Positions 23,657-49,063 are shown, counted from the first letter of the stretch. The stretch: DNA of 64,000 nt from Minisyncoccota bacterium (GCA_041661005.1 JBAZVG010000001.1:607515-671514), one strand, 5' to 3'. Notes: generated by a model not told the origin, from the sequence alone. A program made the numbers and translations.

Positions 23657-24727
23657 ATGATATATAAAGCTAAAAAATCGTTAGGACTAAAAAACGAACA
23701 CGTTTTCGTCCGAGCCAAAAAGGCTTTAGGACAAAATTTCCTGAAATCGGAAATGGCCTTGCGAAAAATTATTGAAGCGGGAGAAATAAAAAAAGATGAC
23801 ATAATCCTTGAAATAGGTCCGGGCAGGGGAGCGCTAACAAAAAAGCTTTTGGAAAAAGTTTACCCCGCCACGGCGGGGCAAGGATTTGTGATAGCAGTAG
23901 AAAAAGATTATGAACTTTTTGAATTTTTAAAAAATAAATTTGAAAGTGAAATAAAATTAGGTTCTCTCGTGCTGGTGCAAGATGACATACTGGATTTTGA
24001 TATAACAAAAGTTGGGCAAAATATTCTCGAGCGAACCCTTGGTAGCAGAAAATGTGCTGGGGGCACATTTCTGAGAGACGACGGACAGAGAAAATTTTCA
24101 GCAGAAAATTTTCGTGGTGAGTCCGAGAATATTTTGCCCAATTTAAAACGCTACAAAATAATCGCCAACATCCCTTACAACATCACCGGCGCGATTTTGA
24201 AAAAATTTTTGACAGACAAACATCAGCCCGAAAGCATGGTGCTGATGGTGCAACATGAAGTTGCGACAAGAATACTCGGAAGGGGAAGCAACCCTTCGAC
24301 TCCGCTCAGGGTAAAAGAAAGCATACTTTCCATTTCGGTCAAAGCATACGGAGCTCCAAAAATGATTGCGAAGGTTGATAAAAGATATTTTTCACCAATG
24401 CCAAAGGTAAATTCAGCGATTATTTCCATAAAAAATATTTCACGCAAGAATTTTAATTCTCCTCTTGAGGAGTACTCCGACTTGGAGTCGGAGGGAGGTG
24501 GACCGAATTTATCCACCCCGTCTCGCCAGCGAGCCACCCCTCAAGAGGGGAATTTTGAAGAAAAATTTTGGGAAATAGTTAAGGCAGGCTTTGCGCACAA
24601 GCGAAAAAAGCTTTCTAGCAACCTGAAAAACATTTGTCAAAGGGCATCTTTGACAAGTTTGGGGAATAAAAGAGCGGAAGATTTGTCGCTAAAGGATTGG
24701 ATTGAACTTGCGAAATCACAAAACTAG
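23657..24727 (+). CDS. rsmA: 16S rRNA (adenine1518/1519-N6)-dimethyltransferase RsmA/KsgA
   Basis: LGQNFL, EIGPGRGALT, NIPYNI motifs; lengthened to 356 aa by two in-frame repeat insertions. Confidence 0.85.
   Translation: MIYKAKKSLGLKNEHVFVRAKKALGQNFLKSEMALRKIIEAGEIKKDDIILEIGPGRGALTKKLLEKVYPATAGQGFVIAVEKDYELFEFLKNKFESEIKLGSLVLVQDDILDFDITKVGQNILERTLGSRKCAGGTFLRDDGQRKFSAENFRGESENILPNLKRYKIIANIPYNITGAILKKFLTDKHQPESMVLMVQHEVATRILGRGSNPSTPLRVKESILSISVKAYGAPKMIAKVDKRYFSPMPKVNSAIISIKNISRKNFNSPLEEYSDLESEGGGPNLSTPSRQRATPQEGNFEEKFWEIVKAGFAHKRKKLSSNLKNICQRASLTSLGNKRAEDLSLKDWIELAKSQN
24020..24133. repeat. repeat family 2 copy in frame in rsmA (with an extra internal hairpin agaaatgtgc/gcacatttct)
   Basis: TIRs aatattctcgagc ... 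gtccgagaatatt. Confidence 0.7.
24461..24550. repeat. palindromic repeat family 4 (CCTCTTGAGG...CCTCAAGAGG) in frame in rsmA
   Basis: Shared with 31728-31802, 40784-40866 and 48989-49063; inner hairpin variant ctccgacttggagtcggag. Confidence 0.7.
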
Positions 24728-24755
24728 ACCTTCCAATTTTGTCGATTAATTACAA

Positions 24756-25757
24756 TTAGGTCGGAAGAAGAGGAGAAGAACCAACCATTGGGAGAATGGT
24801 GCCTTCGGTCTTTATGTTAACAATGCTATATGAACAAACACCGACTGGTTCATAGAATCCAAGTAGAGATTTGGAAGTAGGAGAAGCAATATTGTAACTT
24901 GCAAACCCTTGAGTTCCTTGATAATAACTGAGAAGTTTTACTCCCTTGGGAGGTAGGGGTAGCATAACTATCATAAAACTACCCATACAGGGAATAGCTA
25001 ATGCGTACGAACTACCAAATGCAAAAAACTCTGTTTGAGCTTGAGCGATAGAAGGAGTAATGCCCAACAAAGAAAGAGTTTTAGAAACAAATTTATCAAA
25101 AATAGCCAGAGGTGATTTAGGTTTAAAGTTGGTGCTTAATTTTGCTTCCTGCATGAGTAAATTTTCAAATTCTTGATTTAAGTCAACATCACTATTGGTA
25201 ACAACGTCCCTCACAGTGTCAGCCATGAGCTGGAGTTCCGTTTCCGAGGAACCATTTTTTCTATTTACTTCAACAATTGTTTCAATAGCTTGATCTAAAT
25301 TTGCAAGATTGGGGTTTACATTTTCTGTATTATTACTGTTAGTTGCTGAAACACTGTTTACAAGGGGAGCTGGCGCTAGAGGATTTGAATAACTATCGCA
25401 TTTAATACCAGTTATTGGACTGTATCCTGTTATTCCCTTACAACCTGTCGGATAATTACCTTTATCAACTAAAACACCATTGAGCGCCGAAAGAGTAAGA
25501 TGACCGACTATTCCATCAGCCACCAACCCATTATTTAACTGAAAAGCCTTGACTGCCACATTAGTTAAGGGTCCAAAACTGCCATCCGCAACCGCCCCTA
25601 CTTTTTTCTGAAGACATTTCACTTCAGCGCCCCTCGAACCCATCCTCAATGTGGTAACAATAATACAATCAACTGAAATCGGAGCTATCTCAACAGCAAG
25701 AATTGCTTGCGCAGAGGAGAAAAGAATAAAAAGAATAAATAAATAAAATAATCTCAT
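24756..25757 (-). CDS. secreted protein with peptidoglycan-binding (PG_binding_1) domain
   Basis: Signal peptide; LRMGSRGAEVKCLQKKVG...ADGSFGPLT...ADGIVGHLT. Confidence 0.6.
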   Translation of the reverse strand: MRLFYLFILFILFSSAQAILAVEIAPISVDCIIVTTLRMGSRGAEVKCLQKKVGAVADGSFGPLTNVAVKAFQLNNGLVADGIVGHLTLSALNGVLVDKGNYPTGCKGITGYSPITGIKCDSYSNPLAPAPLVNSVSATNSNNTENVNPNLANLDQAIETIVEVNRKNGSSETELQLMADTVRDVVTNSDVDLNQEFENLLMQEAKLSTNFKPKSPLAIFDKFVSKTLSLLGITPSIAQAQTEFFAFGSSYALAIPCMGSFMIVMLPLPPKGVKLLSYYQGTQGFASYNIASPTSKSLLGFYEPVGVCSYSIVNIKTEGTILPMVGSSPLLPT

Positions 25758-25972
25758 TAGAAATAATCATAACACAATCACAAAACTGAGCATAGGTCGC
25801 ATTGCACCAAAGTAAAACTAGTTTCTTTTTTGAAAAGTGTTACAATTAACTCATAATCAAAAAGTTTATTTTAAAAAATAAAAGAATATTTCTAATCGCC
25901 CTTGCGATACTTTTTCTGGTCGCGCTTTTTATCTTTAAAACAACTTCAATATTTGACAATACGGAAAGATAC

Positions 25973-26788
25973 TTGGGCGTCAATCAAGAAAATGGCTTAA
26001 GTTATAGTGGCAGTATTACGGTGGAGGACTCGGTGAACAAAGATACCGATGGTGACGGAATACTGGATTGGGAGGAAGGCCTGTGGGGAACCGATCCAAC
26101 TAAAAAAGAAACCACCCCGGGGACGAGAGATGCTGTCGCAATAGAAAATTTAAAAAAACAAACAGGCAAAGGTGTTGATCCAGAGATTTTGTCGGGAAAT
26201 GAAGAAAAATTGACGGAAACCGATAAATTCTCCAGAGAACTTTTTGCGACCATGGCCACCATCAACCAAAATGGAGTTGTCGATCAAACCACGATAGACA
26301 CTTTGAGCACTTCTTTGGCTGAAAAGATAAAAAATCCCGTAGTCAGAAAAGTTTTTTCGATTTCCGATATAAAAACAATAAACGACGACAGTTTTCAAGC
26401 TTTCACAAATTATAACAATGCTTTAAACAGCACCTTCGCAAAATACAAAGTTGGATACACCGTTGCAGATGTGTTACAGCAATTTGTAACCGATGAAAAC
26501 ACCGTTGACGCGAGCGCGCTCTTAAAACTCGGCCCGATTATAGGACAAATAAACACAATAATAGGGGGGATGACGGGAATGAATACGCCACAATCTATTT
26601 CAACTCTACATTTGAACATGATAAATTCGCTTCAACGATTGATAGAAAATTTAAGTGATATGAGGCTATATGATACGGATCCAATTGTGGCTATGGGCGC
26701 CATCAGCCAATACGACAAAAATAGCACCCTGTTAAAAACTGCCACCAAAAATCTTTTGAGCGCAATTGAACAAAAATTGAACAATTAA
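25973..26788 (+). CDS. hypothetical protein (first gene of T4SS-like cluster); probably starts further upstream with a TM helix
   Basis: TTG start in the ORF track; an in-frame hydrophobic segment 25850-25970 lacks a canonical start. Confidence 0.45.
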   Translation: MGVNQENGLSYSGSITVEDSVNKDTDGDGILDWEEGLWGTDPTKKETTPGTRDAVAIENLKKQTGKGVDPEILSGNEEKLTETDKFSRELFATMATINQNGVVDQTTIDTLSTSLAEKIKNPVVRKVFSISDIKTINDDSFQAFTNYNNALNSTFAKYKVGYTVADVLQQFVTDENTVDASALLKLGPIIGQINTIIGGMTGMNTPQSISTLHLNMINSLQRLIENLSDMRLYDTDPIVAMGAISQYDKNSTLLKTATKNLLSAIEQKLNN

Positions 26789-26796
26789 AATGGAAA

Positions 26797-28776
26797 TTGT
26801 ATAATAATATAAACAAAAAAATGATAGCCAAAGATAAAACAACGAAACTCATATCCGCTTCCTTGATTGTTTCGATGTTACTGCCTGCAGTTTTACTTCT
26901 AAACCCAAAACAAGCAGAAGCTGCGCTTCCGATCGGTGTGCCGGTGAACGATGTTGTAGCTCAAGCAACTCTCCTCGACATTGCAGGAAACACAACGATC
27001 AGTTCTGCAACCGATACCAAAAGCTGGGCACAAAAGCTTCTTGAACTGCTACTCATGGTGGCCGCTAAAAGGTTTCTGGCTCAAATGACCCAAGCGACTG
27101 TAAACTGGATAAATTCCGGTTTCCACGGAGCGCCACTTTTCATTGAAAACCCCGGATCTTTCTTTAAAGATATATCCAAATCTGAACTTAGAAGTTTGAT
27201 TGATATGATCGGCTACGACACTCTCCGGTTTCCTTTCGGCAAGGATATTGCGCTCCAAGTCATAGCGAGCTATAAAAGCCAGCTCGAAACCAACGCGCAA
27301 TACACCCTAAGCAAGGTTATTTACGATCCAGACCTCTTGGTCCGTTACAGAAACGATTTCAACATAGGCGGGTGGAACGGATTTTTGATAAATACGCAAT
27401 ATCCACAAAATAATTACCTGGGATTCAATATGATAATACAGCAAAACCTAGCAAGCAGACTGGAAGGGACATTGATGGCGCCAGCGCAACAAGTAAAAGA
27501 CATTTTGCAACAAGGAATGGGATTTTTGTCTCCGCAGACTTGTCCAAGTAATCCAAAATATAATAATGGCACAAACGAATTTCTAAAACCAAGCTTCAAG
27601 TCCACAGTAGAATATGTTCCACCATCTCCTGAACCTGCAGATACATACTTGGAACGAGATCGCGCAGCCAGAGCCGCATATCAGAACAACAAGAATGTTG
27701 AAAAGGCAAAATACATGGAAGAAAACACATGTCCAGGTGGTTTAGTTTCCACCACCCCCGGCTCAGTGGCGGCAAATCAAATATTTAACGCGCTTGATAC
27801 TCCCAGAGAATCAACCACCCTCGCTGGAGCATTGGGTAATAGTGTGGTGGACAGCGTCGCCGCTATTTTTGACGCACTGATAGGAAAACTTTTTAGCACC
27901 GGCTTGAATGCATTATCCAGCACAATAAATCCCGAGCCTTCTGTAGACAACTGGAGCTACAATGGCCAGACCCTCGACGGTGGTTACAATTACAACACAA
28001 CTACTGCTGGAACTCTGAATATCCCACAAAATGTTTCAGTCAGAGTCGGAGAATCGACCAGCACCGCCATATCCGGAGGCACAGCCCCTTATGTCATAAT
28101 CAACAAAACTCAGCCTTATTTGTTAGAACCAAAATTGGATGCAACAGTAACGAATGCTCAAATTACTGGCGCTACCCTCCGAGTAACTGGTGTCGGATCG
28201 GGACAGACTGTAGCCATGATCAGAGATTCATCTTTCCCGAACAAAATTGTTCGCGTAAAAATCACAGTAAATGCCGTCGGAGCGCTAGCGGCCTTCCCAG
28301 CGAGTATCTCGACTGGCATCAACGAACCGACTACCGCAATCATAAATGGTGGCGAAGGACCTTATTTTGTCAGAATAGAGCCTGACAATTCGATAGCCGT
28401 GGCAAATTTTGCTGATGGAAATTTGATCATAACCGGTCTCAAAAAAGGCGACACCTTTATTGAAATCGAAGATTCATCTTCGGGAACCAAGAAAACCGTC
28501 CGCATCCCTATTGTGATCAACGGCCCCGAAGATCTAGTCATTCAACAAAACGTCCTAGCCAATGTCGGCGAAGAGGTAAGCATACCGATATCGGGAGGTA
28601 TGGCTCCTTATGCCGTTACGAACCAGCAGGATGTGAGAGTGGCAAACGCGCAAATATTGCCTGCTACTCCGAACACCCTCACAATCAATGGCATCTTGAA
28701 AGGTCAAACAGAAATCCGAGTGGAAGATTCTTCAACGCCAAAGAAGGCTGTGATCGTCAGCGTTACAGTAAATTGA
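26797..28776 (+). CDS. large secreted/membrane-anchored protein with three C-terminal Ig-like (Big_2-type) repeats
   Basis: N-terminal TM/signal; ~65-aa repeats containing SGGTAPY / NGGEGPY / SGGMAPY. Confidence 0.55.
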   Translation: MYNNINKKMIAKDKTTKLISASLIVSMLLPAVLLLNPKQAEAALPIGVPVNDVVAQATLLDIAGNTTISSATDTKSWAQKLLELLLMVAAKRFLAQMTQATVNWINSGFHGAPLFIENPGSFFKDISKSELRSLIDMIGYDTLRFPFGKDIALQVIASYKSQLETNAQYTLSKVIYDPDLLVRYRNDFNIGGWNGFLINTQYPQNNYLGFNMIIQQNLASRLEGTLMAPAQQVKDILQQGMGFLSPQTCPSNPKYNNGTNEFLKPSFKSTVEYVPPSPEPADTYLERDRAARAAYQNNKNVEKAKYMEENTCPGGLVSTTPGSVAANQIFNALDTPRESTTLAGALGNSVVDSVAAIFDALIGKLFSTGLNALSSTINPEPSVDNWSYNGQTLDGGYNYNTTTAGTLNIPQNVSVRVGESTSTAISGGTAPYVIINKTQPYLLEPKLDATVTNAQITGATLRVTGVGSGQTVAMIRDSSFPNKIVRVKITVNAVGALAAFPASISTGINEPTTAIINGGEGPYFVRIEPDNSIAVANFADGNLIITGLKKGDTFIEIEDSSSGTKKTVRIPIVINGPEDLVIQQNVLANVGEEVSIPISGGMAPYAVTNQQDVRVANAQILPATPNTLTINGILKGQTEIRVEDSSTPKKAVIVSVTVN

Positions 28777-28792
28777 GAAGTTAGAAAGTAAA

Positions 28793-31267
28793 ATGAGCAA
28801 AAAAATTAAAAAAATAATTCCATATTGCCTGATACTGGTCATCTTGGCCGGACTTTTTGGACCACTAGCGCAGATTCGAGCGCAAGGTCCATCCAACGCA
28901 CAGTCGGCAGGGGCATTGGTGACAGGAATACAACAGATAAATGCAGCAACGCCAGACAAAAGTAAATCAGCATTTGAAAATGCCCTTGATGAACATTGCA
29001 GTACCATAGCGAGTGGAAGTATTGGTGGCTGTCTGGCTCAATTATTTTATTTTCTATTTTACACAATACCAACATTTTTGCTTGGATTAACGGGAAAATT
29101 ATTAAATGTTGTTATCGTCCTTTCCTTGGACAGCGCCACATACAAAACTGGCTTCATAGATCAGGCATGGACAGTTGTCCGAGACTTTTCGAATATTTTC
29201 TTCATACTTATATTGCTGTATGTAGCTATTCAAACAATCTTGGGAATGGGTCACGAGACCAAGAAAATAATAGTCCAAGTCATCATCATGGCGTTACTCA
29301 TAAATTTTTCTATGTTTTTTACAAGAGTAGTAATTGATTCATCAAATATCTTAGCGCTTGTTTTTTACAATAAATTGACTACGTCGCAGGGAGACACTCC
29401 GTCAAATATAGTATCTTTGAAAAACAAAAGTACCGTAGAAAAAGGTATAACAGAAAAATTAGTTCAAGGGTTTGATATTACAAGGTTAATTAACGCAGAA
29501 TTTTTTAAACAGGCAAAAACCAGATCGGGGTTTGCTCCAGTATCCTTATCAAGCGCCGGATATACTGGAGCCGGAGCGGTGATTGGGACTTATATATTGC
29601 CAGGAGTGGGTACTGTAATTGGTGGAATCGCAGGGTTTACGTTGGCTTGGATCAACTCTGACAAGGTGCCTCCTTCTCTGCTGATAAGCATACTGATACC
29701 AGCAGGAATCATTATGTACTACGCAATGTACGTCTTTTTCACAGCGGGAATAGCTCTCTTGTCTAGAATAATCGAACTATGGGTGCTTACAATTTTTTCA
29801 CCATTTGCCTTTATGTCTTCAAGTTTGCCTTCACTGGCAAAGTTCCCGGGTGTTGGCTGGAGTGAATGGTTAAAAAGACTTTTTGAGGTAGCTCTCTCGG
29901 CGCCGATTTTTATGTTTTTCCTATTGCTGATTTTTAAAATAGTAGATGCGGATATAACCAAAGATCTACTCTCGCCAACAAGATTAGCGAAAGATCAGTG
30001 GCTCTTAGAAACAATCGTCCTTGTATCAATCGCTGCCTTTATAATTCTAGCACTCCTACAAAAAGCTACAAAATATGCCAAGAAAGCATCGGGAGAATTG
30101 GGAGAATTAATAACGAAGGGCGTAGGTCTAGTCAGTGGACTTGCCATAGGTGGAGGAATAGGTGTTGCAGCGGCAGGTTTGCAGGGGAGCTTGGGACATT
30201 TAGGTCAGAAGGCCTACGAGTCTAAAGGGTTGGCGGAATTGGAAACAAGTAAAAAAACTGGCATAAGAGGATGGGGTGAAAGAAGTATCGGTCGTGGATT
30301 AAGGACCATCGCAGGCGGAGATGACGGCAAAGGTGGATTTGCTGGTTCAAGTTTCGACTTGAGAAAAGGCACAGCTGGTGGAATTTTGAAACTGGCATCC
30401 TCCGCCACTGGGTTTAATTTAGGAGCGCAATCTAAATTCCTCATGAAAGAAGAGGGTGGATATATGGCAGACCTAAAGAGACGAGATGCAAAAAGAAAAG
30501 AGAGAGCCGAGGGATTGCAAGAATCATCAAGCGCAAAAGCCAAAGAAGAATTGCGCGACGCAGAAGACCAGCACCAAACCCTAATGACGGTAAGCTCACA
30601 GCCAATCAAAGAAATTGAAGAAAAAATCAAGAAAGCTCGAGAAGCTAAAAAGGATGCTAAAGCGGGAGATAAAGACGCAATATCAGACAAAATTAAAAAA
30701 CTCGAAGAACAGAAAAAGGCAATCAAGAATGCTAAAGCAAAGTCAATTGAAGAAGCTGAAAAAGATGTTAAAGAAGCAACTGAAGCGGCTGAACAAGCAA
30801 AACAAGCCTTAAAAGACAACCCTGATGACAAAGCCCTTCAAGATGTGGCTTGGGATGCCAACCAAAAATTAGCTGCTACTAAAGCTGGTAGAGCTTCTGC
30901 CATATCTGCTAAGGCTCTTGGTCTCAAGCCTGAAGATATGAGATCTATTAATGATTATGAGGATAATCTGATTAAAGATGCTAAACACAAGGTGCATCAC
31001 ACGGAGGAAAGAGTCGCACGAGCCTTCTCTGAGAATATAGAAAAGCAATTAGCTTGGCCATGGAATAAGGCTGCGCGCAAAAGATCGGCACAAGACATAA
31101 GAATGGGTATCAAGCCGGAAAAAAGTCATGATGAGGGGCACGGCGCACAACACTTTTGGGGTGATTTAGCAGCAGGAGCAATAACAAATGCACTTTCTGA
31201 TCATGGACACGAAGAAAAGAGTGATAATGCTAAACCTAGTGGAGACTCACATGCACCTGGACACTAA
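28793..31267 (+). CDS. VirB6/TrbL-like polytopic membrane protein with long C-terminal coiled-coil/low-complexity tail
   Basis: Signal peptide, then ~6 TM helices, then a Lys/Glu/Ala-rich 350-aa tail; TrbL-like architecture. Confidence 0.5.
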   Translation: MSKKIKKIIPYCLILVILAGLFGPLAQIRAQGPSNAQSAGALVTGIQQINAATPDKSKSAFENALDEHCSTIASGSIGGCLAQLFYFLFYTIPTFLLGLTGKLLNVVIVLSLDSATYKTGFIDQAWTVVRDFSNIFFILILLYVAIQTILGMGHETKKIIVQVIIMALLINFSMFFTRVVIDSSNILALVFYNKLTTSQGDTPSNIVSLKNKSTVEKGITEKLVQGFDITRLINAEFFKQAKTRSGFAPVSLSSAGYTGAGAVIGTYILPGVGTVIGGIAGFTLAWINSDKVPPSLLISILIPAGIIMYYAMYVFFTAGIALLSRIIELWVLTIFSPFAFMSSSLPSLAKFPGVGWSEWLKRLFEVALSAPIFMFFLLLIFKIVDADITKDLLSPTRLAKDQWLLETIVLVSIAAFIILALLQKATKYAKKASGELGELITKGVGLVSGLAIGGGIGVAAAGLQGSLGHLGQKAYESKGLAELETSKKTGIRGWGERSIGRGLRTIAGGDDGKGGFAGSSFDLRKGTAGGILKLASSATGFNLGAQSKFLMKEEGGYMADLKRRDAKRKERAEGLQESSSAKAKEELRDAEDQHQTLMTVSSQPIKEIEEKIKKAREAKKDAKAGDKDAISDKIKKLEEQKKAIKNAKAKSIEEAEKDVKEATEAAEQAKQALKDNPDDKALQDVAWDANQKLAATKAGRASAISAKALGLKPEDMRSINDYEDNLIKDAKHKVHHTEERVARAFSENIEKQLAWPWNKAARKRSAQDIRMGIKPEKSHDEGHGAQHFWGDLAAGAITNALSDHGHEEKSDNAKPSGDSHAPGH

Positions 31268-31307
31268 AAATTTACTTGTCCCGTACTAAATTATAAAAAC
31301 AAAACAC

Positions 31308-31847
31308 ATGACTGAAAAATTAAAACAAGCAATTGAAGAAGAAATCGCAAAATTGCCCAAAGAAGGGCAAGACGCCATTGGTGCTGTTAATTGGATTAAA
31401 ATAACCGAAGAAATAGGGAAAAAGTTTTTACTGGAAAATGATGAAATAGAAGATTTTCAATTGGAAACATTATTAGTCTTGATCGGATCCGTGGACTCTG
31501 AATTCTATTCAGTTAACATCGAAAACCAAGTGGGCACGACGAAGGAAGAAGCAAAAAATATGGCCGATGAAGCTTTCCAGAAAATATTCGTTCCCATAAG
31601 AAATATTCTGGAAGAAAATATAAAGAAAGATATGAAAAATAAAAATCCGGATTGGAAACAATCTCTTGATTTTATTCTCTCGGGTGGAGACTATCTTTCT
31701 TTTATAACGCCAACACAGACAAATTCTCCTCTTGAGGAGTACCCTTTAGGGGGAGGTGGAATATCCACCCCGTCTGGTAAACCAGCCACCCCTCAAGAGG
31801 GGAACGATCAAGAAACAGTTATCCCAGTGTTTTCGATAAAAAAATAA
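31308..31847 (+). CDS. hypothetical protein (carries a family-4 repeat in frame)
   Basis: 179 aa; N-terminal region resembles the next ORF. Confidence 0.45.
   Translation: MTEKLKQAIEEEIAKLPKEGQDAIGAVNWIKITEEIGKKFLLENDEIEDFQLETLLVLIGSVDSEFYSVNIENQVGTTKEEAKNMADEAFQKIFVPIRNILEENIKKDMKNKNPDWKQSLDFILSGGDYLSFITPTQTNSPLEEYPLGGGGISTPSGKPATPQEGNDQETVIPVFSIKK
31728..31802. repeat. palindromic repeat family 4 copy (in frame, encodes SPLEEYPLGGGGISTPSGKPATPQEGN)
   Basis: cctcttgagg ... cctcaagagg termini. Confidence 0.7.
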
Positions 31848-31880
31848 ACCAACAATTAAAATCTAAGCTATAATAACACC

Positions 31881-32549
31881 ATGACAGATACAATAGACTT
31901 GTTGCAAATAAAAATAGAGAAAGCGAAAAGGGAACTTCCGTCGGAAACTTTGAACGCCATTAACGCTGTCGACTGGAAGGCGTCCATCTTGGAACTGCGA
32001 GCAAAAAAGGGATACACCTTTGAACAGTTGAGTGATCTCGAGCTTGAAACAGAATTATTGCTTTGTGGACTTGCTCGTGCAGAAGATTACCCAAAAGAAC
32101 TGGAAAAAAGAATGGGGATTTCAAAATCGGCTACTAATGATCTGGTAAATGAAATGAACAACTTGGTTTTTAGAAAAATAAGAGAAGAATTAATCAAAAA
32201 TACTGAGAGAAAAAAAATATACGCGCAAAATGAACAAAAAAACACCAGCGACTCTCAAATCCTAAAATCAGTCGGTATTGAAATCGTCGAAAAAGAAACC
32301 TTGCCAGTGGCAGAGAAACTAGAACTCACGACAGCGCCCGTGGCTGGAGAAAAGTTTAAAGAAATCAGGAAGGAAGTGTTAGAAAAGATAGAAAATCCAG
32401 AGCCCGCTCATCCGATATTGGCTCAGAAATTGTCCGCCTCAGTCCAAGCTCCAATAGTCAAAACAGATCATTCGCTAGGCAACCTGTCTAAGACAAATAC
32501 ACCAAACACCACGCCCAAAATAGATCCTTACCGCGAAATACCGGAGTAG
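31881..32549 (+). CDS. hypothetical protein (distant paralog of 31308-31847)
   Basis: 222 aa; similar N-terminal helical region. Confidence 0.45.
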   Translation: MTDTIDLLQIKIEKAKRELPSETLNAINAVDWKASILELRAKKGYTFEQLSDLELETELLLCGLARAEDYPKELEKRMGISKSATNDLVNEMNNLVFRKIREELIKNTERKKIYAQNEQKNTSDSQILKSVGIEIVEKETLPVAEKLELTTAPVAGEKFKEIRKEVLEKIENPEPAHPILAQKLSASVQAPIVKTDHSLGNLSKTNTPNTTPKIDPYREIPE

Positions 32550-38844: not shown

Positions 38845-38975
38845 AATTCCAAAACTTGTTGCAGGTGTAGTTTTAGATAGACATTGCGCAGGCTGTCGAG
38901 CCGAGCATAGCAAATTTTCAGCAGAAAATTATGTCGTGTCTAGATAAAACTATACCAAGAAAGAGTTTTGGAATT

Positions 38976-40262: not shown

Positions 40263-40484
40263 TTAAATTACCGGGTCAATATGATTTTTTTGCCACGGAT
40301 GACAGCGTAAAATTCTCCAAAATCCCAAATAAAGACCTTTCAAGACACCATATTTCGCTATAGCTTGTTTAGTGTATTCTGAACAAGTAGGATAAAACAC
40401 ACAGCTACGTTTAAAGAAAATAGAAATGTATTTTTGGTAAAAACTAATTAATTTTTGCAAGTATAGTCTTAATTTCATTTTCAA
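40263..40484 (-). CDS. yidD: membrane protein insertion efficiency factor YidD
   Basis: LISFYQKYISIFFKRSCVFYPTCSEYT motif. Confidence 0.85.
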   Translation of the reverse strand: MKMKLRLYLQKLISFYQKYISIFFKRSCVFYPTCSEYTKQAIAKYGVLKGLYLGFWRILRCHPWQKNHIDPVI

Positions 40485-40770
40485 GTATTAAAATATCTTC
40501 TTGATATTTTTTAAAAACAAAAACACCGGTAATCCCAAGAGGGAACTGGTTTATATATTTTTCCAAAACACGATATCCTAACCTTCTTAGAGAATTCCTT
40601 TTGACAGCCAATTTGACAACACTTTTTGGAGCGATAAAAGAAATTTTTACTTCTTGATTCCCTTGATCTTTAAAATACTTAAACGTCAAACTTGGAGAAA
40701 CTATAAATTTTCCTTCTTTAAAAATTTTCTCTATTGCCTTTTTATCGGCTCTATGTTTCTTTTGGAGCAT
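40444..40770 (-). CDS. rnpA: ribonuclease P protein component
   Basis: 108 aa, basic; RNase P protein motif RLGxxVxKK...; position downstream of rpmH. Confidence 0.85.
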   Translation of the reverse strand: MLQKKHRADKKAIEKIFKEGKFIVSPSLTFKYFKDQGNQEVKISFIAPKSVVKLAVKRNSLRRLGYRVLEKYINQFPLGITGVFVFKKYQEDILILENEIKTILAKIN

Positions 40771-40783
40771 GTATCTTTTATTC

Positions 40784-40866
40784 TCCTCTTTGAGGAGTAC
40801 CCTTTAGGGGGAGGTGGATGAATTTTCCACCCCGTCTCGCAAAAGCGAGCCACCCCTCAAGAGGGG
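40784..40866. repeat. palindromic repeat family 4 copy in the rpmH-rnpA spacer
   Basis: cctctttgagg ... cctcaagagg; inner hairpin ctcgc-aaaa-gcgag. Confidence 0.7.
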
Positions 40867-40869
40867 AAT

Positions 40870-41004
40870 CTAAACAGATAACTTTTTTCTGCCTTTTTGA
40901 CGTCTCCTCTTCAACACTTTCTTGCCAGTCTTGATTCTAGATCGAACTAAAAATCCATGGCTTCGAGCTCTCTTTCTTTTTTTAGGTTTGTATGTAAATG
41001 ACAT
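40870..41004 (-). CDS. rpmH: 50S ribosomal protein L34
   Basis: 44 aa [44 protein letters not shown] matches the L34 consensus; absent from the ORF track because it is shorter than 60 aa. Confidence 0.85.
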
Positions 41005-41155
41005 ATATCCAATACTATAATAAAATTAAACATTAGGCAACTAGGTGAATGACTTCATTAAAAAATTTGGAAGTTGCGTTATACACAGATTATCAACAAG
41101 TTTAATAACTTTCAATAAGTATCCAACATTTTACAAATAGTATAATATGTAACCA

Positions 41156-42505: not shown

Positions 42506-42636
42506 TTAAAAGTTATTAGACTTAAATTAAAAACAAAAAACTATATACAACCTTATGAAATATAAGCGAAAAAAGTTATCCACTTATCAAGGTATCTAAT
42601 AGTATTAATAGATTATATATATAAAATTATAAACAT
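42506..42636. other. candidate oriC segment (DnaA box TTATCCACT at ~42577 plus an AT-rich unwinding region)
   Basis: dnaA-dnaN spacer; a second cluster of imperfect boxes lies upstream of dnaA (41060-41110). Confidence 0.45.
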
Positions 42637-43734
42637 ATGAAACTAGAATGCAAAACTGAAGAAATAAAAAATAAAATTTCACAAGTAGAAAGAATTACTG
42701 GAAAGAATTTAACTTTACCTGTTTTAAATTCAATTCTTTTGATTGCGTCTGGTAAATCATTAAAACTCAGATCTACAAATCTAAGTTTAGGTATTGAAGT
42801 TGAAATCCCTGCCAAGGTGGAAAAGGAAGGTATTGTTGCTATTTCTGGGTCAGTATTAAATGGTATTTTTTCTAATGTTTTTCAAAATGAGAATGTTTAC
42901 TTTGAAAGCGTGGATGGTAATCTGTTAATTCAAACAAAGAAGAGTAAAATAAAACTTAAAGGCCAACCACACGATGATTTTCCAACAATACCAATGGTTT
43001 CTGGAACAAGTTTTGAGATAGATTCTAAAAAATTAGTAGATGGGATAAAATCCGTTTACTATAGTTCATCTTCATCAGATATAAAGCCTGAAATATCAAG
43101 CGTTTTCATGCACACCCAGGAAGATAATTTAATATTTGTTTCCACTGATTCATTTAGGTTGGCAGAGAAGAAAATAAAAATAAAAGGACTTCCTGAAATA
43201 GGAGGTATATTGATTCCATATAAAAACATCTCTGAAATTCTAAGAGTTTTTGGGGAATTATCTTTGACCGTAAAGGTATGTTTCAATAAAAACCAAATTT
43301 CCTTTTCATCCGATGGTGTGTATCTGACTTCACGAGTGATCGATGGAGTTTTTCCAGATTATCGTCAAATTATCCCCAAGACTTCAGGAACCAGCGCTGT
43401 TGTGCTCAAACAGGACATGTTGAATGCGCTCAAGATTTCAAATATCTTTTCAGATAAATTTAATCAAGTTAATTTAAGAGTTTCACCGCAGGAGAAAGTC
43501 TTTGAGCTTTCATCTATCAACAATGACATCGGAGAAAATAAAACGTATCTAGATGCCGCCTTAACCGGAGAGGACGTCGAACTTGGTTTTAATTACAAAT
43601 ACTTTCTAGATTGTTTCCAGTCTATCGCCACCGACAGCATGTCCATAAAATTCTCTGGAGTTAGCAGTCCTTTGATGGTGTCTCCGGTCTCCGATTCGTC
43701 ATTTACGTATCTTATTATGCCGATGAATAGGTGA
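42637..43734 (+). CDS. dnaN: DNA polymerase III beta sliding clamp
   Basis: 365 aa; three-domain clamp; conserved synteny with dnaA. Confidence 0.9.
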   Translation: MKLECKTEEIKNKISQVERITGKNLTLPVLNSILLIASGKSLKLRSTNLSLGIEVEIPAKVEKEGIVAISGSVLNGIFSNVFQNENVYFESVDGNLLIQTKKSKIKLKGQPHDDFPTIPMVSGTSFEIDSKKLVDGIKSVYYSSSSSDIKPEISSVFMHTQEDNLIFVSTDSFRLAEKKIKIKGLPEIGGILIPYKNISEILRVFGELSLTVKVCFNKNQISFSSDGVYLTSRVIDGVFPDYRQIIPKTSGTSAVVLKQDMLNALKISNIFSDKFNQVNLRVSPQEKVFELSSINNDIGENKTYLDAALTGEDVELGFNYKYFLDCFQSIATDSMSIKFSGVSSPLMVSPVSDSSFTYLIMPMNR

Positions 43735-43735
43735 T

Positions 43736-46273
43736 CTATTGCTCCACTTTAAATACCGAAACAGCTTCACTTTTGTTGTAGACGCTGTCTTGAGCAACTA
43801 TTCGCAATTCGTTTTCTGCCTGCAAGTCTTCTAACTCTTTGGGAATAAAAGAAAAACCGGAGATGGAATTGGAGGTTCCCAAGAATATATTGTTTACAAA
43901 AATATCTATTTTAGTGAGCGGATAACGACTGAAATTTGAAATTTTTATATTTATTCTTTGGTTGGGTTGATAAGTCGTAATATTGTTTGGCTCAATGATA
44001 GAGATGACTGGTTTTGATGAATCAGTATGCACGTCATCCAACATAGTTGGTTTTTCACTAGCGGTAATTGTTCTATATTTTCCTTTATTTTGCGCCCACC
44101 AATCTTGGATGGGTATTTCCCAATGATTAAATTGAGAATTGCTAGTTGGGTTTGAAGGCACCGGTCCTAAAATATCGCTTCTATCTATCCAATAGAGAAT
44201 CGAATGCATGTTGGTTATAACTTTTTCCTGCAAAGTTTCCTTTGGGGTGTTTTCGGTTGCCAATTTTCCCGAGATTTTGTCGATGAAGAAGTTTTCATTT
44301 CCCTGCCAGTTTCCTCGGATCGCTGGTTTTACTGTGGTTGGGTCAGCATCTAGATTTGGTTTGTCAAATTTTTCATTTGGCAAAGTTTTTAGCGCCTCGT
44401 TTATAAATTTATTCCAGATCGGACCTGCCACAGCCACGCCTCCTTTTTTCATCGGCGTGTTGTCGTTGTTTCCTGCCCAGACGCCCACAGCGATGGAAGG
44501 AGTATAGCCGATAGTCCAAGCGTCTTTATTGTTGTTTGTTGTTCCGGTTTTTACAGCCACATCATGTCCGGGGATGAGAAGAGCTGAATGCTGTCCGAAG
44601 GTTGGGATGCGCGCTTTTTCATCCGACAGGATGTTTGAAATAGTTAGCGCGGTATTTTCAGGCAGAACTTCTCGTGTATTTGTCTTAAATTCTTCTAAAA
44701 TTTCTCCACTGCTGTCTTCGATTTTTAAAATTCCAGTGTAGGGATTGCGAATACCGTTATTTGCAAAAACACTATAAGCTGATGTCATATCGAGGAGGGA
44801 AACTTCTCCACCTCCGATGACAAGTGTGAGTCCATATCGGCCGATATCGCCCAAAGTGCTGATGCCCATGTCTTCTGCTGTTTTCAGTGAATCTGAAAGA
44901 CCTGCCAAATAGAAGAGTTTTACCGCTATGAGGTTGATCGATTGCGCTAAAGCATCTCGGAGGGTCATCGGCCCGCGGAATTTTCCATCGTAATTGTCTG
45001 GCATGTAGCAATCTTTCTGATTGTGTCCGGGAAGAGCCTTGCCGTAAGCGTTGCAAGTGGTCTGAAATTCTGTAGGCAGGTCAAACAGCGTTGTGTCTGG
45101 GGTAAAGCCCTTGTTGAAGGCTGTGGCGTATATAAAAGGCTTGAAGGACGAACCTGGCTGTCTAGAAGCAGTAGCTACATTGAAGTTTCCATCTATTTCT
45201 TTATCAAAATAATTTCGAGAGCCGATCATTGTCAAAATCTGTCCAGTTTTCGGATCTATCGCTACCAAGCTGGCATTTTTTCCGTTCCAATTTTCTTGAT
45301 TTATCAATGCGCCTTCATTTACGATTTGTTCCCCTTTTTGTTGCAGATCATAATCCAAGGTTGTCGTGACTTTAAGCCCGCCCTTTTCTACCATTTCGTT
45401 GCCATATTTTTGTTCGAGGTAATCTTTAATAAAGAAAACAAAATGTGGAGCCTTGATTCCGTTTGATGCTTGGGGAACAAACACCACGACTTCGTTTTTT
45501 GCCTTGTCGTGTTCTTCTTTAGAAATGAAATTTAGTTCCAACATTCTAGCCAGCACTAGATTTTTCCTAGCTTCCAACCTTTCTTTGTTCCTTCCATAAG
45601 GAGACAAAATAGTAGGGGATTGCGGGATCGAAGCCAAATATGCAGCTTCAGCGAGGGTTAAATAGAGCGGTTCTTTATTGAAATAAGTCTTACTCGCTTC
45701 TTCTATTCCGTAAATGTTTCCACCATAAGGAGCCTCGTTCAAATAATATTCCAAGATTTTTTCTTTTGGCATCGATCCGTCTATTTTGACCGCTAAAAAC
45801 CACTCCTTCATTTTTCTGACATAGCTGACTTTTTGCGTCAGAAGGGTGTTTTTCACCAATTGCTGGGTTATCGTCGAACCTCCTCCACCTATTCCAATGT
45901 GAAATATATTAGAAAGAACCGCTCGGATGGTGGAAGTTATCCGCACTCCTTTGTGGTTATAAAATTCGGAATCTTCAATAGCCACCGTGGCGTTTTTGAT
46001 GTTTATTCCCATTGCATCTCCCGAGATGTCTGTTCTTTTTGTGTCTCGATGCATGTCGTAAAGCAAGATTTCTCCTGTCTTGTCATATATTTTGATGGAA
46101 TTCTGTATTTTTCTGTCGTTGAAAGAATTAAAATCTGGAATCTTCATAGAAGAAATCAAAAGCATTAGCATTCCAAGCGTTAAAATGAAAATACTGACCA
46201 AAAGCACTATCAAATTCTTCCAGAATTTCTTGTTTTTTGCGATTTCTTTGAAAGCTCGAAATATTTTTCTCAT
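43736..46273 (-). CDS. class A penicillin-binding protein (transglycosylase + transpeptidase; PBP1A-type)
   Basis: N-terminal TM, GT51 motifs (GGSTITQQ), transpeptidase SxxK/KTG motifs, C-terminal extension. Confidence 0.9.
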   Translation of the reverse strand: MRKIFRAFKEIAKNKKFWKNLIVLLVSIFILTLGMLMLLISSMKIPDFNSFNDRKIQNSIKIYDKTGEILLYDMHRDTKRTDISGDAMGINIKNATVAIEDSEFYNHKGVRITSTIRAVLSNIFHIGIGGGGSTITQQLVKNTLLTQKVSYVRKMKEWFLAVKIDGSMPKEKILEYYLNEAPYGGNIYGIEEASKTYFNKEPLYLTLAEAAYLASIPQSPTILSPYGRNKERLEARKNLVLARMLELNFISKEEHDKAKNEVVVFVPQASNGIKAPHFVFFIKDYLEQKYGNEMVEKGGLKVTTTLDYDLQQKGEQIVNEGALINQENWNGKNASLVAIDPKTGQILTMIGSRNYFDKEIDGNFNVATASRQPGSSFKPFIYATAFNKGFTPDTTLFDLPTEFQTTCNAYGKALPGHNQKDCYMPDNYDGKFRGPMTLRDALAQSINLIAVKLFYLAGLSDSLKTAEDMGISTLGDIGRYGLTLVIGGGEVSLLDMTSAYSVFANNGIRNPYTGILKIEDSSGEILEEFKTNTREVLPENTALTISNILSDEKARIPTFGQHSALLIPGHDVAVKTGTTNNNKDAWTIGYTPSIAVGVWAGNNDNTPMKKGGVAVAGPIWNKFINEALKTLPNEKFDKPNLDADPTTVKPAIRGNWQGNENFFIDKISGKLATENTPKETLQEKVITNMHSILYWIDRSDILGPVPSNPTSNSQFNHWEIPIQDWWAQNKGKYRTITASEKPTMLDDVHTDSSKPVISIIEPNNITTYQPNQRINIKISNFSRYPLTKIDIFVNNIFLGTSNSISGFSFIPKELEDLQAENELRIVAQDSVYNKSEAVSVFKVEQ

Positions 46274-46293
46274 TGGTAGAATTATAGCAGAAA

Positions 46294-47490
46294 ATGTGGT
46301 ATAGTCCGAATATTGTGAAAATAATAACAGATGAAAAAAAAATAGATGAAATTTTAAATCGCGGAGTTGAAGATATTTTCATAAAAGAAAGCTTAAAGAA
46401 AAAAATGCTCTCCGGAAAAGTTCTCCGCGTTAAGTTTGGCATTGATCCGACTGGCCCCAAGATACATTTAGGCAGAGCTGTTCCGCTTAGAAAATTACGT
46501 CAATTTCAAAACTTGGGACATAAGGTTGTTATACTTGTGGGCGATTTTACCGCCACTATTGGAGATCCGTCGGACAAGCTTGAAAAGCGACCGATGCTGA
46601 CGACAGCAGAAATAAAAAAGAATATGAAAGATTACAAAAGTCAGCTTGGTAAGATAATTGATCTAAAAAAAGCTGAGTTTGTTTATAACAGCAAGTGGCT
46701 CAGTAGGCTTGGTTTTGCTGAAATTTCCGAATTAGCTGAAAGTTTTTCCGTTCAGCAGATGTCCAGTCGCAGAAATTTCAAAGACAGAATTGAAAAAGGT
46801 GAAGAAGTTTCTTTGCGTGAGTTTTTGTATCCCATTATGCAGGGATATGACAGCGTGGTGGTGAAAGCGGATGTGGAAATCGGAGGTTTTGATCAGTTAT
46901 TCAATTTAAAAGCAGGTAGAGTTATTCAGAGACATTACAAAATGCCCGAACAGGATGTTTTAACGGTGCAAATGCTCGAAGGCACGGATGGTAGAAAGAT
47001 GTCCAGCTCTTGGGGAAACGTGATTTCGATTGTGGATGAACCGAACGATATGTTTGGAAAGATTATGGCTGTGCGCGATGAACTTATTTCAAAGTATTTT
47101 AAACTTTGCACGGATATTTCTGACTCTGAGATTCCAAAAAGCGAAAATCCCCGCGATTTAAAGATGCGTCTTGCTTATGAAATAGTAAAAATCTATCATG
47201 GAGAAAAAAAAGCGCAGGGGGCTCAAGAAAATTTCATCAATACTTTCCAAAAAAGAGAGATTCCAGAAGAAATGGAAGAAATAAAAGCTAACGCGGGAGA
47301 ATTGTTGAGTGAAGTCCTGGTTAAAAATAAAATTTTAGCATCAAAAGGCGAATGGCGCAGGCTTGTTCTAGGGAACGCAGTGCATGATTTAGAAAAGAAT
47401 AGTGTTATAACAGATCAAAATATGAAAATTGCAGAAAATCTGAAACTAAAAATTGGCAAGAAAAGATTTCTAAAAGTTTTAGTGAGTTAA
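46294..47490 (+). CDS. tyrS: tyrosine--tRNA ligase
   Basis: HIGH-like ...HLGRAVPL and KMSSS motif; S4-like C-terminus. Confidence 0.9.
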   Translation: MWYSPNIVKIITDEKKIDEILNRGVEDIFIKESLKKKMLSGKVLRVKFGIDPTGPKIHLGRAVPLRKLRQFQNLGHKVVILVGDFTATIGDPSDKLEKRPMLTTAEIKKNMKDYKSQLGKIIDLKKAEFVYNSKWLSRLGFAEISELAESFSVQQMSSRRNFKDRIEKGEEVSLREFLYPIMQGYDSVVVKADVEIGGFDQLFNLKAGRVIQRHYKMPEQDVLTVQMLEGTDGRKMSSSWGNVISIVDEPNDMFGKIMAVRDELISKYFKLCTDISDSEIPKSENPRDLKMRLAYEIVKIYHGEKKAQGAQENFINTFQKREIPEEMEEIKANAGELLSEVLVKNKILASKGEWRRLVLGNAVHDLEKNSVITDQNMKIAENLKLKIGKKRFLKVLVS

Positions 47491-47504
47491 ATATTTTTTA
47501 GTTG

Positions 47505-47645
47505 CTATTTATCTTTATCTGGGTCCTCTTCGTCCAATCCAAAGTCAGGTATTTCTTCTGGCATATCCAACGGCTCGCCTAATTCATCTTCATCAGCGCC
47601 AACTTTAAAACCATCTTCTACTTCTTCATTTTCATCGTAACTCAT
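47505..47645 (-). CDS. small highly acidic protein (46 aa)
   Basis: MSYDENEEVEDGFKVGADEDELGEPLDMPEEIPDFGLDEEDPDKDK; below the ORF-track size cutoff. Confidence 0.25.
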   Translation of the reverse strand: MSYDENEEVEDGFKVGADEDELGEPLDMPEEIPDFGLDEEDPDKDK

Positions 47646-47840
47646 AGTGTTTATTATTTTTAATTAATTATTATTAATAATTTTACTATTTTTCATCTGA
47701 AGTATTCATTTTGTCTTCAGTGAAAACAAACTCCATGTTGGAATTTCTTCTTTTGTAACAAAATCTAAAACGGTTGGCAATAGCAAAAAGACCTAAGATG
47801 TGGATAACCCCGAACCAGAGCAAGCTCGGTACGGGGCAGG

Positions 47841-48344
47841 CTAAACTTTTTGATGCGCGAACGCAGTGAGCGCGATGGCGATAGCGTCTAATTCGTCATC
47901 AGATTTTTTATTTTCTTCTATATCCACTAAAATTTTAACCATTTTTATCACTTGTTCTTTATCCGCTTTTCCATAGCCGGTTGTTGCCATTTTTATTTGG
48001 GGTGGGGAAGCCTCAAAGATGCGCAGTCCGGCGAGGGCTCCTTCATAAACCACAACTCCGCGCGCTTCGGCGACTCGCATGACCGTCTTTTGATTTGTAT
48101 TTAAAAACAAAGTTTCTATTGCTAAAATTTCTGGTTTATATTCTTTTATTATTCTGCGCACTTCTTCGCCGATCAGGCGCAATCTCTCGGGAAATTCCAA
48201 CTTTGCAGAAGTTTTAAAACATTCAGAAAAAATGACACGTTCCCTGCCAAAAGCGGAGTCGAAGGGTTTGTTGCCCTGTTTGGTCTTTTCTAATATTGCC
48301 ACTCCCAGCCTTTCAAATCCGGGGTCTATTCCTAAAATTCTCAT
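47841..48344 (-). CDS. ruvC: crossover junction endodeoxyribonuclease RuvC
   Basis: MRILGIDPG... with catalytic acidic residues. Confidence 0.9.
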   Translation of the reverse strand: MRILGIDPGFERLGVAILEKTKQGNKPFDSAFGRERVIFSECFKTSAKLEFPERLRLIGEEVRRIIKEYKPEILAIETLFLNTNQKTVMRVAEARGVVVYEGALAGLRIFEASPPQIKMATTGYGKADKEQVIKMVKILVDIEENKKSDDELDAIAIALTAFAHQKV

Positions 48345-48548
48345 ATTTTGAAGTTTAACATAACTTATCTAATAATAGTGATATTATATATAAGGCATTG
48401 TTCTTTATCAGTAGAGCTAGGGCACATTATAAGTGCATAAGGGTGTTTAATGGGACGTTCTTCTGATCCCAGAACATGCAGGGAGTTGGCCCTTGGAGTC
48501 TCTGTTGAGTGAACCAACTTTCACTCAACATCAAGTCGTTCGGACCGA

Positions 48549-48570
48549 GAAAGCCTGACGGCTTTTTTAT
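48549..48570 (+). terminator. intrinsic terminator (aagcc-tgac-ggctt + T6) ending a ~170-nt plus-strand transcript that has no ORF
   Basis: Stem-loop plus U-run seen directly. Confidence 0.5.
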
Positions 48571-48706
48571 TTGCCCAGCTTCGTTGAGTTTTCCACAGTC
48601 AGAATTTGACATATATATATATCGGTTCATTATTTAAGTGAACAGCTCTTTGACGCGATTCGGAACATTAAGTCGGATCTAAAGTGAGGGGCTGTCTAAG
48701 AAACAT

Positions 48707-48865
48707 ATGCCGAACAAACTGCTCGTTGGCTTCGCCAACATCAATGGTCAGATTCAGGCTTCGCGTGGCGCGCTCGACTGCACCCAGGCGGCTCATCCGG
48801 CGGCCACCATCGTGGCCATGAGCGACAACAACAATCCGGTGCGGCGCTTTGGTAGCACCGCGTGA
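48707..48865 (+). CDS. small ORF (52 aa) in a ~60% GC island; coding status uncertain
   Basis: MPNKLLVGFANINGQIQ...; preceded by a TTGACA-N17 promoter-like sequence at 48608; overlaps an 86-aa ORF on the opposite strand. Confidence 0.25.
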   Translation: MPNKLLVGFANINGQIQASRGALDCTQAAHPAATIVAMSDNNNPVRRFGSTA

Positions 48866-48988
48866 TCGAAGATCTGCCCGAGCTCCGGGAGGGGTCTGAC
48901 AAGACCCCTCCCATCCATCAAAGTCCACTAGTTGGACTCTTTCACTGAAGGAGCACTAGTGGCTTTTTCTTTTACCTTTTTTATTATT

Positions 48989-49063
48989 CCCCTCTTGAGG
49001 GGTGGCTCGCTTGTGAGACGGGGTGGATATCCCACCTCCCCCTAAAGGGTACTCCTCAAGAGG
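48989..49063. repeat. palindromic repeat family 4 copy overlapping the ruvB 3' end (supplies the last codons and stop)
   Basis: cctcttgagg ... cctcaagagg. Confidence 0.7.

Follow-up and report, generated by a model that had tools for sequence, protein, structure and literature searches.

Gene-less inverted repeats in a Minisyncoccota genome as probable derivatives of a DUF559 nuclease cassette

A 64,000-nt stretch from a Minisyncoccota bacterium (GCA_041661005.1, JBAZVG010000001.1:607515-671514; ~39% GC; hereafter the window, meaning the whole 64 kb analysed) carries four copies of a short palindromic repeat placed inside coding sequences or directly against gene ends, raising the question of what kind of element these copies represent and which enzyme may have acted on them. 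Because the same inverted units bracket a gene of the DUF559 family in related genomes, the reading favoured here, with a probability of about 0.6, is that the window copies are gene-less, non-autonomous derivatives of a DUF559 cassette, resembling miniature inverted-repeat transposable elements (MITEs) and the hairpin-forming doublets of repetitive extragenic palindromic (REP) sequences known as REPINs. The broader statement that the family is a mobile-element-derived repeat of MITE/REPIN type is considered very probable. DUF559 is a large protein family that includes Escherichia coli YcjD.

All four copies reported by an earlier, sequence-only reading of this DNA were found in the window, in the gene contexts it had described. 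Copy c1 (24456-24553, + strand, 98 nt) lies in frame inside rsmA, c2 (31723-31805, +, 83 nt) in frame near the 3' end of the ORF (open reading frame) at 31308-31847, c3 (40780-40869, +, 90 nt) occupies the whole rpmH-rnpA spacer, and c4 (48986-49068, - strand, 83 nt) overlaps the 3' end of ruvB and supplies its stop codon. A core 17-mer, CCACCCCTCAAGAGGGG, occurs four times in the window against 0.03 occurrences expected by chance, and a covariance model run with filters off found no fifth copy within the 64 kb. The locations given earlier stood, with true ends lying slightly further out, at ATTC...GAAT in all four copies; the 10-bp terminal palindrome, previously described as perfect, is exact in c1, c2 and c4 and is interrupted by one extra T in the left arm of c3 (CCTCTTTGAGG). 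Each copy consists of two related half-units of ~40-45 nt arranged as an inverted doublet, because a half-unit model built from 57 distinct right halves matches every window copy twice on opposite strands, at 66.7-72 bits for the right half and 22.7-29.5 bits for the left. In c1, which has a long left variable hairpin (CTCCGACTTGGAGTCGGAG), the right half scored 71.9 bits and the left half, on the opposite strand, 26.4 bits; c3 scored 72 bits.

The association with DUF559 was seen in loci retrieved from other genomes, numbered here with the prefix L. In four of these (L021, L043, L072 and L105), two inverted units ~390 bp apart enclose an ORF of ~150 aa, the N-terminus of which (NSPLEGW..ETKTGW) is encoded by the unit itself and which belongs to DUF559 (PF04480, E 4.8e-20, 71.9 bits against a cut-off of 20.6). 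Ten DUF559 ORFs were present across the retrieved loci, all of them directly bracketed by units, and among ten ORFs bracketed by inverted units nine were DUF559, the other being a 272-aa ORF with no Pfam match. The cassette products are 140-170 aa long, the D..ExDG..H motif (D76, E87, D89, G90, H93) is invariant in the DUF559 proteins, and the nearest solved structure is that of a Neisseria DUF559 protein (3HRL, E 1.6e-8). Two arrangements were distinguished. In type A (H'-gene-H), which has the polarity of the window doublets, the gene sits in the apical loop of the doublet with its start codon ~11 nt outside ATTC; in type B (H-gene-H') it sits at the tail-to-tail junction, and the TGA stop falls within ATTCCCCTCTTGA and gives the protein ending 'KFPS*', the same device as the 'FSS*' ending provided by c4 to ruvB. 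An internally deleted DUF559 gene in L061 probably represents an intermediate towards the gene-less form, and two metagenome-assembled genomes (MAGs; JAPLXV01 and CAIVBM01) each contain a cassette as well as gene-less doublets. In an independent test, the DUF559 core without its unit-encoded residues was used as a query against 5.8 billion proteins, and unit-encoded termini, at the N-terminus, the C-terminus or both, recurred in at least 93 of the best 120 homologues. A conserved ORF of ~187 aa lies directly before the type A cassette in L021 (3848-4408) and L043 (6325-6891), its stop overlapping or adjoining the DUF559 start, and the two genes may be co-transcribed.

The wider motif search suggested by the sequence-only reading was carried out as an exact-pattern scan of one genome per species and yielded the half-unit at more than 112 further loci among the matches listed, most of them in genomes of Patescibacteria (the candidate phyla radiation, CPR). 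Full doublets occur in MAGs of Nomurabacteria, Paceibacterota and further Patescibacteria, and similarity to named MAGs places the window itself in a Patescibacteria genome of the Nomurabacteria/Paceibacteria group. Only units of the right-half type were found in MAGs labelled as Bacillota, Kapabacteria (including a 3.8-Mb chromosome), Nitrospirota, Desulfobulbaceae and Ignavibacteria, where they form single units, both kinds of inverted pair and clusters. A full doublet on a contig labelled Burkholderiales (L029) was considered as cross-phylum evidence and left uncounted, this contig having 29% GC and probably being a mis-binned CPR contig. Sequence sampled independently of the element, namely 364 kb surrounding ruvB from 80 related metagenome contigs, contained ~3 full doublets, so the window, with four in 64 kb, is relatively rich in them. 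Two kinds of cluster were also observed, in L046 (3597-4574, Kapabacteria chromosome 2) and in L014, L058, L020 and L024 (Bacillota-labelled MAG): six half-units within 1 kb, and tandem ~37-nt units (TTTCCACCCCGTCTGATTGGGGGACTGGGCTTTTCTT) running into a complete half-unit. Both kinds resemble arrays of bacterial interspersed mosaic elements (BIMEs).

Because the core of the unit has both the CGTC tag and the CCA tail that characterise CGTC-tagged REPs, DUF559 genes elsewhere were examined as well. Inverted hairpin-plus-G-box units of BoxC type bracket DUF559 genes in Azospirillum lipoferum, Sinorhizobium meliloti, Sphingomonas, Deinococcus and Picosynechococcus; in S. meliloti these units are doublets with CGTC tags, lying in arms of 114 nt with 96% complementarity, and those of Picosynechococcus are of a different sequence style. 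Units lie immediately on one side only of E. coli ycjD and of the Methylobacterium and Photobacterium genes. DUF559-repeat pairing was thus seen in eight genera besides the CPR set, with Neisseria ambiguous: the gene for 3HRL, between carA and carB, has repeats 20 nt upstream and at least 146 nt downstream that do not pair cleanly. For background, 50 kb of the Azospirillum replicon, with 44 genes, has ~5 such hairpin loci, and three units flank the DUF559 gene. The pairing with an apparently intact Vsr-like nuclease gene is, in these gene neighbourhoods, specific, recurrent and cross-phylum. A search of the library of papers used found none linking DUF559 or ycjD to repeats. At the E. coli locus (L200), an inverted BoxC/TMECO pair lies directly downstream of ycjD, at 736-775 and 937-976, and this gene with its BoxC pair is a tractable model for the nuclease-repeat link.

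The anatomy of the unit bears on how such a nuclease might recognise it. On one strand the unit reads ATT, a CCCCTC arm, a TT loop, a GAGGGG arm, TGG, a variable hairpin, AGAC and GGGGTG(GA), and in the other orientation TCCACCCC-GTC-[variable hairpin]-CCACCCC-TCAAGA-GGGGAAT; the doublet ends in an imperfect 17-bp terminal inverted repeat, ATTC[T/C]CCTCTTGAGG[A/G]G. The compensatory changes noticed earlier in the two variable hairpins were borne out in larger samples. Among the 57 distinct right halves, for which the search pattern placed no constraint on the variable segment, three pairs of the hairpin show CG, GC, UA and AU, and the covariation score was 0.255, whereas shuffles gave 0.065 and slid controls no more than 0.068; across 49 full elements, both-sided changes were found in all five right-half pairs and in five of the six left-half pairs.

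Left and right halves differ, over the 18 nt of arms and G box, at exactly three positions, the right half having CCCCTC/GAGGGG/GGGGTG and the left half CTCCTC/GAGGAG/GAGGTG. If the G box and the purine arm run antiparallel, the three come together in a single base triple (C:G.G changing to T:A.A), and over 128 distinct units the triple is in the CGG state in 97 and in the TAA state in 29, with two exceptions. Placed in the long inter-half stem, the same three changes give rise to one T.G pair, one A.C mismatch and one bulged A. When either strand is folded by itself, a four-way junction is predicted, and the two strands do not differ in how well they fold, each containing one T.G and one A.C. 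A long terminal hairpin or cloverleaf, although predicted thermodynamically, was rejected as the conserved fold, and the long terminal palindrome stressed by the sequence-only reading is broken by conserved differences between the halves. Since those differences keep the local fold and disrupt the long inter-half stem, a fold local to each unit, comprising a short hairpin and a fold-back G strand, is favoured from the pattern of substitution. That a triplex-type fold matters to the element is a possibility, and one that we regard as rather doubtful.

The consensus element has a single open frame on each strand, the forward one being SPLEEYPLGGGG.STPS..ATPQEGN and the reverse one SPLEGW..QTGW..LPLKGTPQEEN, the other frames reaching TAG, TGA or TAA within ten codons; because only these frames are open, c1 and c2 share one element frame (SPLEEY..GGGG..STPS..ATPQEGN) and ruvB meets an immediate stop. 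The rsmA gene (23657-24727, +; 356 aa; Pfam RrnaAD, PF00398, E 1.9e-43) reads through c1 as SPLEEYSDLESEGGGPNLSTPSRQRATPQEGN, between the methyltransferase domain and the C-terminal domain, and the c2 host (31308-31847, +; 179 aa) has no Pfam match. In ruvB (49056-50090, -), the native C-terminal tail is replaced by the element end, and the left end of c4 gives the last three codons, F-S-S, with the TGA stop at 49056-49058. Copy c3 is antisense to both of its neighbours: the stop of rpmH (40870-41004, -) at 40870-40872 abuts it, and the ATG of rnpA (40444-40770, -), at 40770, lies 9 nt from it. On the - strand, the left end of c3 (40771-40795) presents AGGAG 12 nt upstream of that ATG, and may supply the rnpA ribosome-binding site.

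Among 66 distinct full copies in the retrieved loci, 26 (39%) lie within long ORFs, in frame and with no stop. Twenty-one of these 26 have a length of 3n+2 between ATTC and GAAT, equivalent to a net gain of 3n if two of the terminal bases are counted as target sequence, compared with an 18/9/13 distribution over the three length classes for copies outside ORFs. These lengths indicate selection for translation through the element, and removal of the intragenic copies at the RNA level by splicing or excision was rejected because their frame stays open and their net length is 3n. The flanks are A/T-rich, position -1 being A in 49 of the 66 copies and position +2 being A or T in 64; the 3n+2 rule is compatible with a duplication of 2 nt (AT) or 3 nt (AAT), of which AT is palindromic and overlaps the inverted repeat. 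A query of concatenated insert peptides for host proteins gave three matches. Insertion sites in rsmA, tgt, uvrB, a gene for a UvrD-like helicase, a purD-like gene and the c2 host ORF are shared by several species, the c1 site of rsmA being also occupied in L006, L034 and L065. Between copies at the same site the 60 constant nt are 93-100% identical, compared with 61-85% for 150-nt coding flanks, and the variable hairpins and loops differ freely; since the constant parts are better conserved than the coding DNA around them, they would be either constrained directly or homogenised.

A check of ruvB orthologues taken from metagenomes, which the sequence-only reading had raised for the C-terminal extension, confirmed that here the element took the place of the native tail. 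Of 81 orthologous 3' ends, 78 are empty and read ..HLGFDxKKGQEKLL*, and the element is present only in the window, L113 and L125, so the ruvB copy is a derived insertion. The c2 site is likewise occupied in L081 and empty in L052. Other palindromic families were observed at the ruvB 3' end in L133, L121, L136, L158 and L160, including the BoxC-like CCCTCTCCTTAATAAGGAGAGGGCTGGGGTGAGGTG; these also replace the C-terminal tail, making the ruvB end a recurrent landing site.

Under the DUF559-cassette reading, a Vsr-like PD-(D/E)XK nuclease would recognise the units and cut them, and host repair or copying would spread or homogenise gene-less copies in trans. Landing sites would be mostly A/T-rich gene ends and surface loops, and intragenic copies would survive through having one open frame per strand, with only 3n insertions at tolerant sites being kept. 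Vsr acts at T:G mismatches, and each folded strand of the doublet presents one T.G; recognition might, speculatively, use a transiently single-stranded folded form and possibly its T.G mismatch, given the relationship to Vsr. That DUF559 is the enzyme acting on the repeat is regarded as somewhat probable. A still wider proposal, plausible enough to put forward tentatively, is that YcjD-type DUF559 proteins are the missing partners of the BoxC/PIT/TMECO and CGTC-tagged hairpin repeats across bacteria, in a nuclease-driven system parallel to REPINs and their REP-associated tyrosine transposases (RAYTs), in which the enzyme would recognise a folded, triplex-like unit and gene-less doublets would have colonised CPR gene ends and essential coding sequence.

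Several observations weigh against these proposals. The 64-kb window contains no DUF559 ORF, and the Neisseria, E. coli, Methylobacterium and Photobacterium genes are without clean two-sided bracketing. Neither a target-site duplication nor an exact empty site could be pinned down to the nucleotide; the native tail of ruvB is missing rather than simply interrupted, and the closest empty orthologues are at ~90% protein identity. Many same-site insertions are in species whose flanking proteins are just 56-75% identical, and current activity of the element may therefore be low. The covariation of the base triple involves two states only, which may stem from a single ancestral event. No PD-(D/E)XK nuclease is known to transpose DNA by itself. 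A stable BoxC triplex could not be demonstrated in vivo (Holder et al. 2015, PMC4666352).

A possible alternative explanation is that the doublets are moved by another, unseen transposase, DUF559 being a passenger or a homing-endonuclease gene that landed in pre-existing multi-copy repeats. The two positions of the gene relative to the units (types A and B) could reflect insertion into repeats, the type A start codon lies ~11 nt beyond ATTC, and there are known examples of Vsr-like enzymes acting as homing endonucleases (Steczkiewicz et al. 2012, PMC3424549). However, ~0.9 Mb of unit-centred loci contained no RAYT or other transposase-like ORF bracketed by units, so that such a partner was set aside, DUF559 being the only ORF that recurs and making up nine of the ten bracketed. 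Nearly all members of this DUF559 subfamily are flanked by units, and the recurrence of DUF559 with lineage-specific units in distant phyla is what would be expected of a co-evolving enzyme-site pair rather than of a passenger; this alternative is therefore considered unlikely. The view that the conserved repeat serves host genes as RNA, in the form of terminators, sites of processing or stability, or translational regulators, is less probable still. It would account for structured, covarying hairpins, for the many copies at gene ends, for the T-run after the unit in Bacillota-labelled MAGs and for the AGGAG that c3 places before rnpA, and a unit in the leader or N-terminal region of DUF559 genes could control their expression. 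The suggestion in the sequence-only reading that the copies act as terminators or processing sites was nevertheless not supported: a sense-strand terminator signature is absent at all four copies, none being followed by a T-run on the sense strand, and the only terminator-like one of the eight terminal hairpins belongs to the left end of c2, where it is in antisense orientation within an ORF.

Intragenic copies, moreover, are in frame with 3n lengths, and for the 39% of copies that lie in ORFs a terminator function would do harm. Neither strand folds better than the other, copies are found both along and against the direction of transcription, and the purine-motif triple does not form in RNA (literature quoted in PMC4666352). 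Rfam 15, at the gathering threshold, was silent at the elements of the window and of 18 loci labelled non-CPR, reporting only tRNAs in the window and two riboswitches elsewhere. The remaining alternative places selection on the protein, the inserted peptide (SPLEEY-GGGG-STPS-ATPQEGN) being a selected module and the repeat being conserved for its coding capacity, as same-site in-frame copies in RsmA, Tgt, UvrB and the UvrD-like helicase of several species might suggest. Synonymous positions are, however, as conserved as others, the identity of the constant parts exceeds that of the coding flanks by the difference given above, and the variable parts alter the peptide freely. Identical DNA also occurs between genes and in antisense (c3), and the same protein sites hold unrelated repeat families in the window, making a peptide module very improbable. 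The DUF559-cassette reading remains the one preferred.

Comparison with known systems places the family between several of them. Like a MITE, the element is short (83-98 bp), multi-copy and bounded by terminal inverted repeats. A longer element with the same ends exists, encoding a DUF559 endonuclease and no recognised transposase. A close parallel is with REP/REPIN-RAYT systems (Nunvar et al. 2010, PMC2817692; Bertels & Rainey 2011, PMC3116915). In both, short units that form hairpins are found alone, in inverted doublets and clustered, the doublet being the dispersed non-autonomous form; the associated gene is bracketed by inverted units; and copies persist vertically at fixed sites over long periods. 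In contrast to those systems, where the gene encodes a Y1 HUH (IS200-like) transposase, the gene here encodes a DUF559/Vsr-like PD-(D/E)XK nuclease, the tag adjoining the variable hairpin is CGTC with no GTAG, the units are longer with a G-rich third segment, and a large share of copies is intragenic. REP sequences are largely lineage-specific, whereas the constant parts of this unit are conserved across genomes labelled as different phyla.

The BoxC/PIT/TMECO repeats, described in the 1990s and found in their thousands in proteobacteria, are intrastrand-triplex repeats with the consensus CCCTCNCCC-N3-6-GGGNGAGGG-N3-GGGNGAGGG, comprising 9-nt blocks and short loops, and no transposase or integrase has ever been found near TMECO sites (Holder et al. 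2015, PMC4666352). The design is shared: a C-rich arm, a loop, a G-rich arm, a linker and a second G-rich block pairing as G.G:C and T.A:T, and the three blocks of the present unit could form G.G:C, A.A:T or T.A:T triples. Both kinds of repeat also frequently form heterodimeric inverted pairs and are highly conserved and widespread. Typical BoxC-like units share CPR loci with this family and adjoin DUF559 genes, including E. coli ycjD. The present family differs in having blocks of 6 rather than 9 nt and a second loop of ~15-30 nt (TGG, variable hairpin and AGAC) rather than 3 nt, and in often being intragenic, TMECO being described as always intergenic (PMC4666352). BoxC-like units were additionally observed nested in the apical loop of element copies in L023, L035, L060, L073 and L098, so that repeats insert into repeats.

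CGTC-tagged REPs, which include Rickettsia RPE-4 and RPE-6 and Neisseria dRS3, are a class for which no dedicated transposase was reported (Di Nocera et al. 2013, PMC3733652). The present unit resembles them in carrying CGTC immediately 5' of the variable stem and, on its 3' side, a CCA tail, CCCCGTC-T..A-(G/T)CCA being invariant in 57 of 57 units, although these flanks had been included in the pattern used for the search; as in those repeats, the stem opens with a T-A pair (UA in 52 of the 57), and inverted pairs and copies inside replication and repair genes are common to both. Stems here are mostly 4-6 bp with loops of 2-6 nt, compared with 8-9 bp and 4-5 nt in CGTC-1 to CGTC-4, and the extra conserved flanks (TCCACC.. 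and ..CCCTCAAGAGGGGAAT) place the unit outside the four published families. The Rickettsia palindromic elements (RPEs) are reportedly, from work by Ogata and colleagues in 2000, palindromic repeats of ~100 bp that lie in frame in housekeeping genes of a reduced genome, are translated and occupy orthologous sites. The family described here similarly consists of a palindromic repeat in frame in housekeeping protein genes and kept at orthologous sites, its translation being likely from the open frames. Its sequence is probably unrelated to that of the RPEs beyond the CGTC tag. It differs from RPEs, too, in belonging to another host phylum, in having a candidate partner gene (DUF559) and in sharing its protein sites with unrelated families.

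I-Bth0305I is a homing endonuclease of the Vsr-like (EDxHD) kind, and such enzymes share with the cassette a fold family and the character of small selfish nuclease genes. Vsr and DUF559 form one clade (Steczkiewicz et al. 2012, PMC3424549). Homing endonucleases differ in copying themselves into one cognate allele and producing no dispersed gene-less repeats, and there is no intron or intein context here. With no RAYT or GTAG tag, with 6-nt blocks and a long hairpin-bearing loop, and with stems shorter than those of CGTC-1 to CGTC-4, the family lacks defining features of each class compared; it behaves like a REPIN and like the RPEs, and combines BoxC/PIT architecture with CGTC-REP tags.

The main value of the family lies in its candidate partner enzyme. 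No mobility gene or dedicated transposase has been reported for repeats of BoxC type (PMC4666352) or for CGTC-tagged REPs (PMC3733652), and the window family links the two classes, combining the BoxC design with CGTC and CCA tags and having DUF559 bracketed in many genomes. If the proposed partnership is correct, DUF559 would gain a function, the origin of BoxC-type repeats and the instability associated with them would be explained, as would part of the unusual insertions in essential CPR proteins, and the question would become testable in E. coli through ycjD and the adjacent BoxC pair.

The window contains further repeats besides the family under study. A second dispersed family of ~118 nt is present at 10477-10595, 13514-13632, 23527-23643 and 38851-38907, its copies being 76-91% identical, in both orientations and mostly at gene ends. 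A third family occurs at 22393-22482, 24077-24134 and 56167-56256; one of its copies (24077-24134) lies in rsmA, which consequently carries two unrelated insertions, this copy and c1, and another lies in the UvrD-like helicase ORF at 21308-23527. A fourth, GC-rich family (22510-22586, 62250-62341 and 62676-62767) is found in the UvrD-like helicase gene and in uvrB, its helicase copy occupying the protein site at which other species carry the family studied here; in the window uvrB, too, the corresponding site carries an insertion, which is probably the copy at 62676-62767. Different repeat families thus reuse the same permissive protein sites.

A direct repeat of 108 nt (8479-8586 and 9083-9190, 82% identity, 604 nt apart) lies in the most GC-rich part of the window (0.468). 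Just beyond ruvB, a terminator-like hairpin (48947-48969, +, in the region 48880-48985) has the form AAAAAGCCrCyAGTG...GTCTTAACGAC and no Rfam match; many related contigs carry a conserved version of it downstream of ruvB, and it could be the terminator of a convergent gene or a small RNA.

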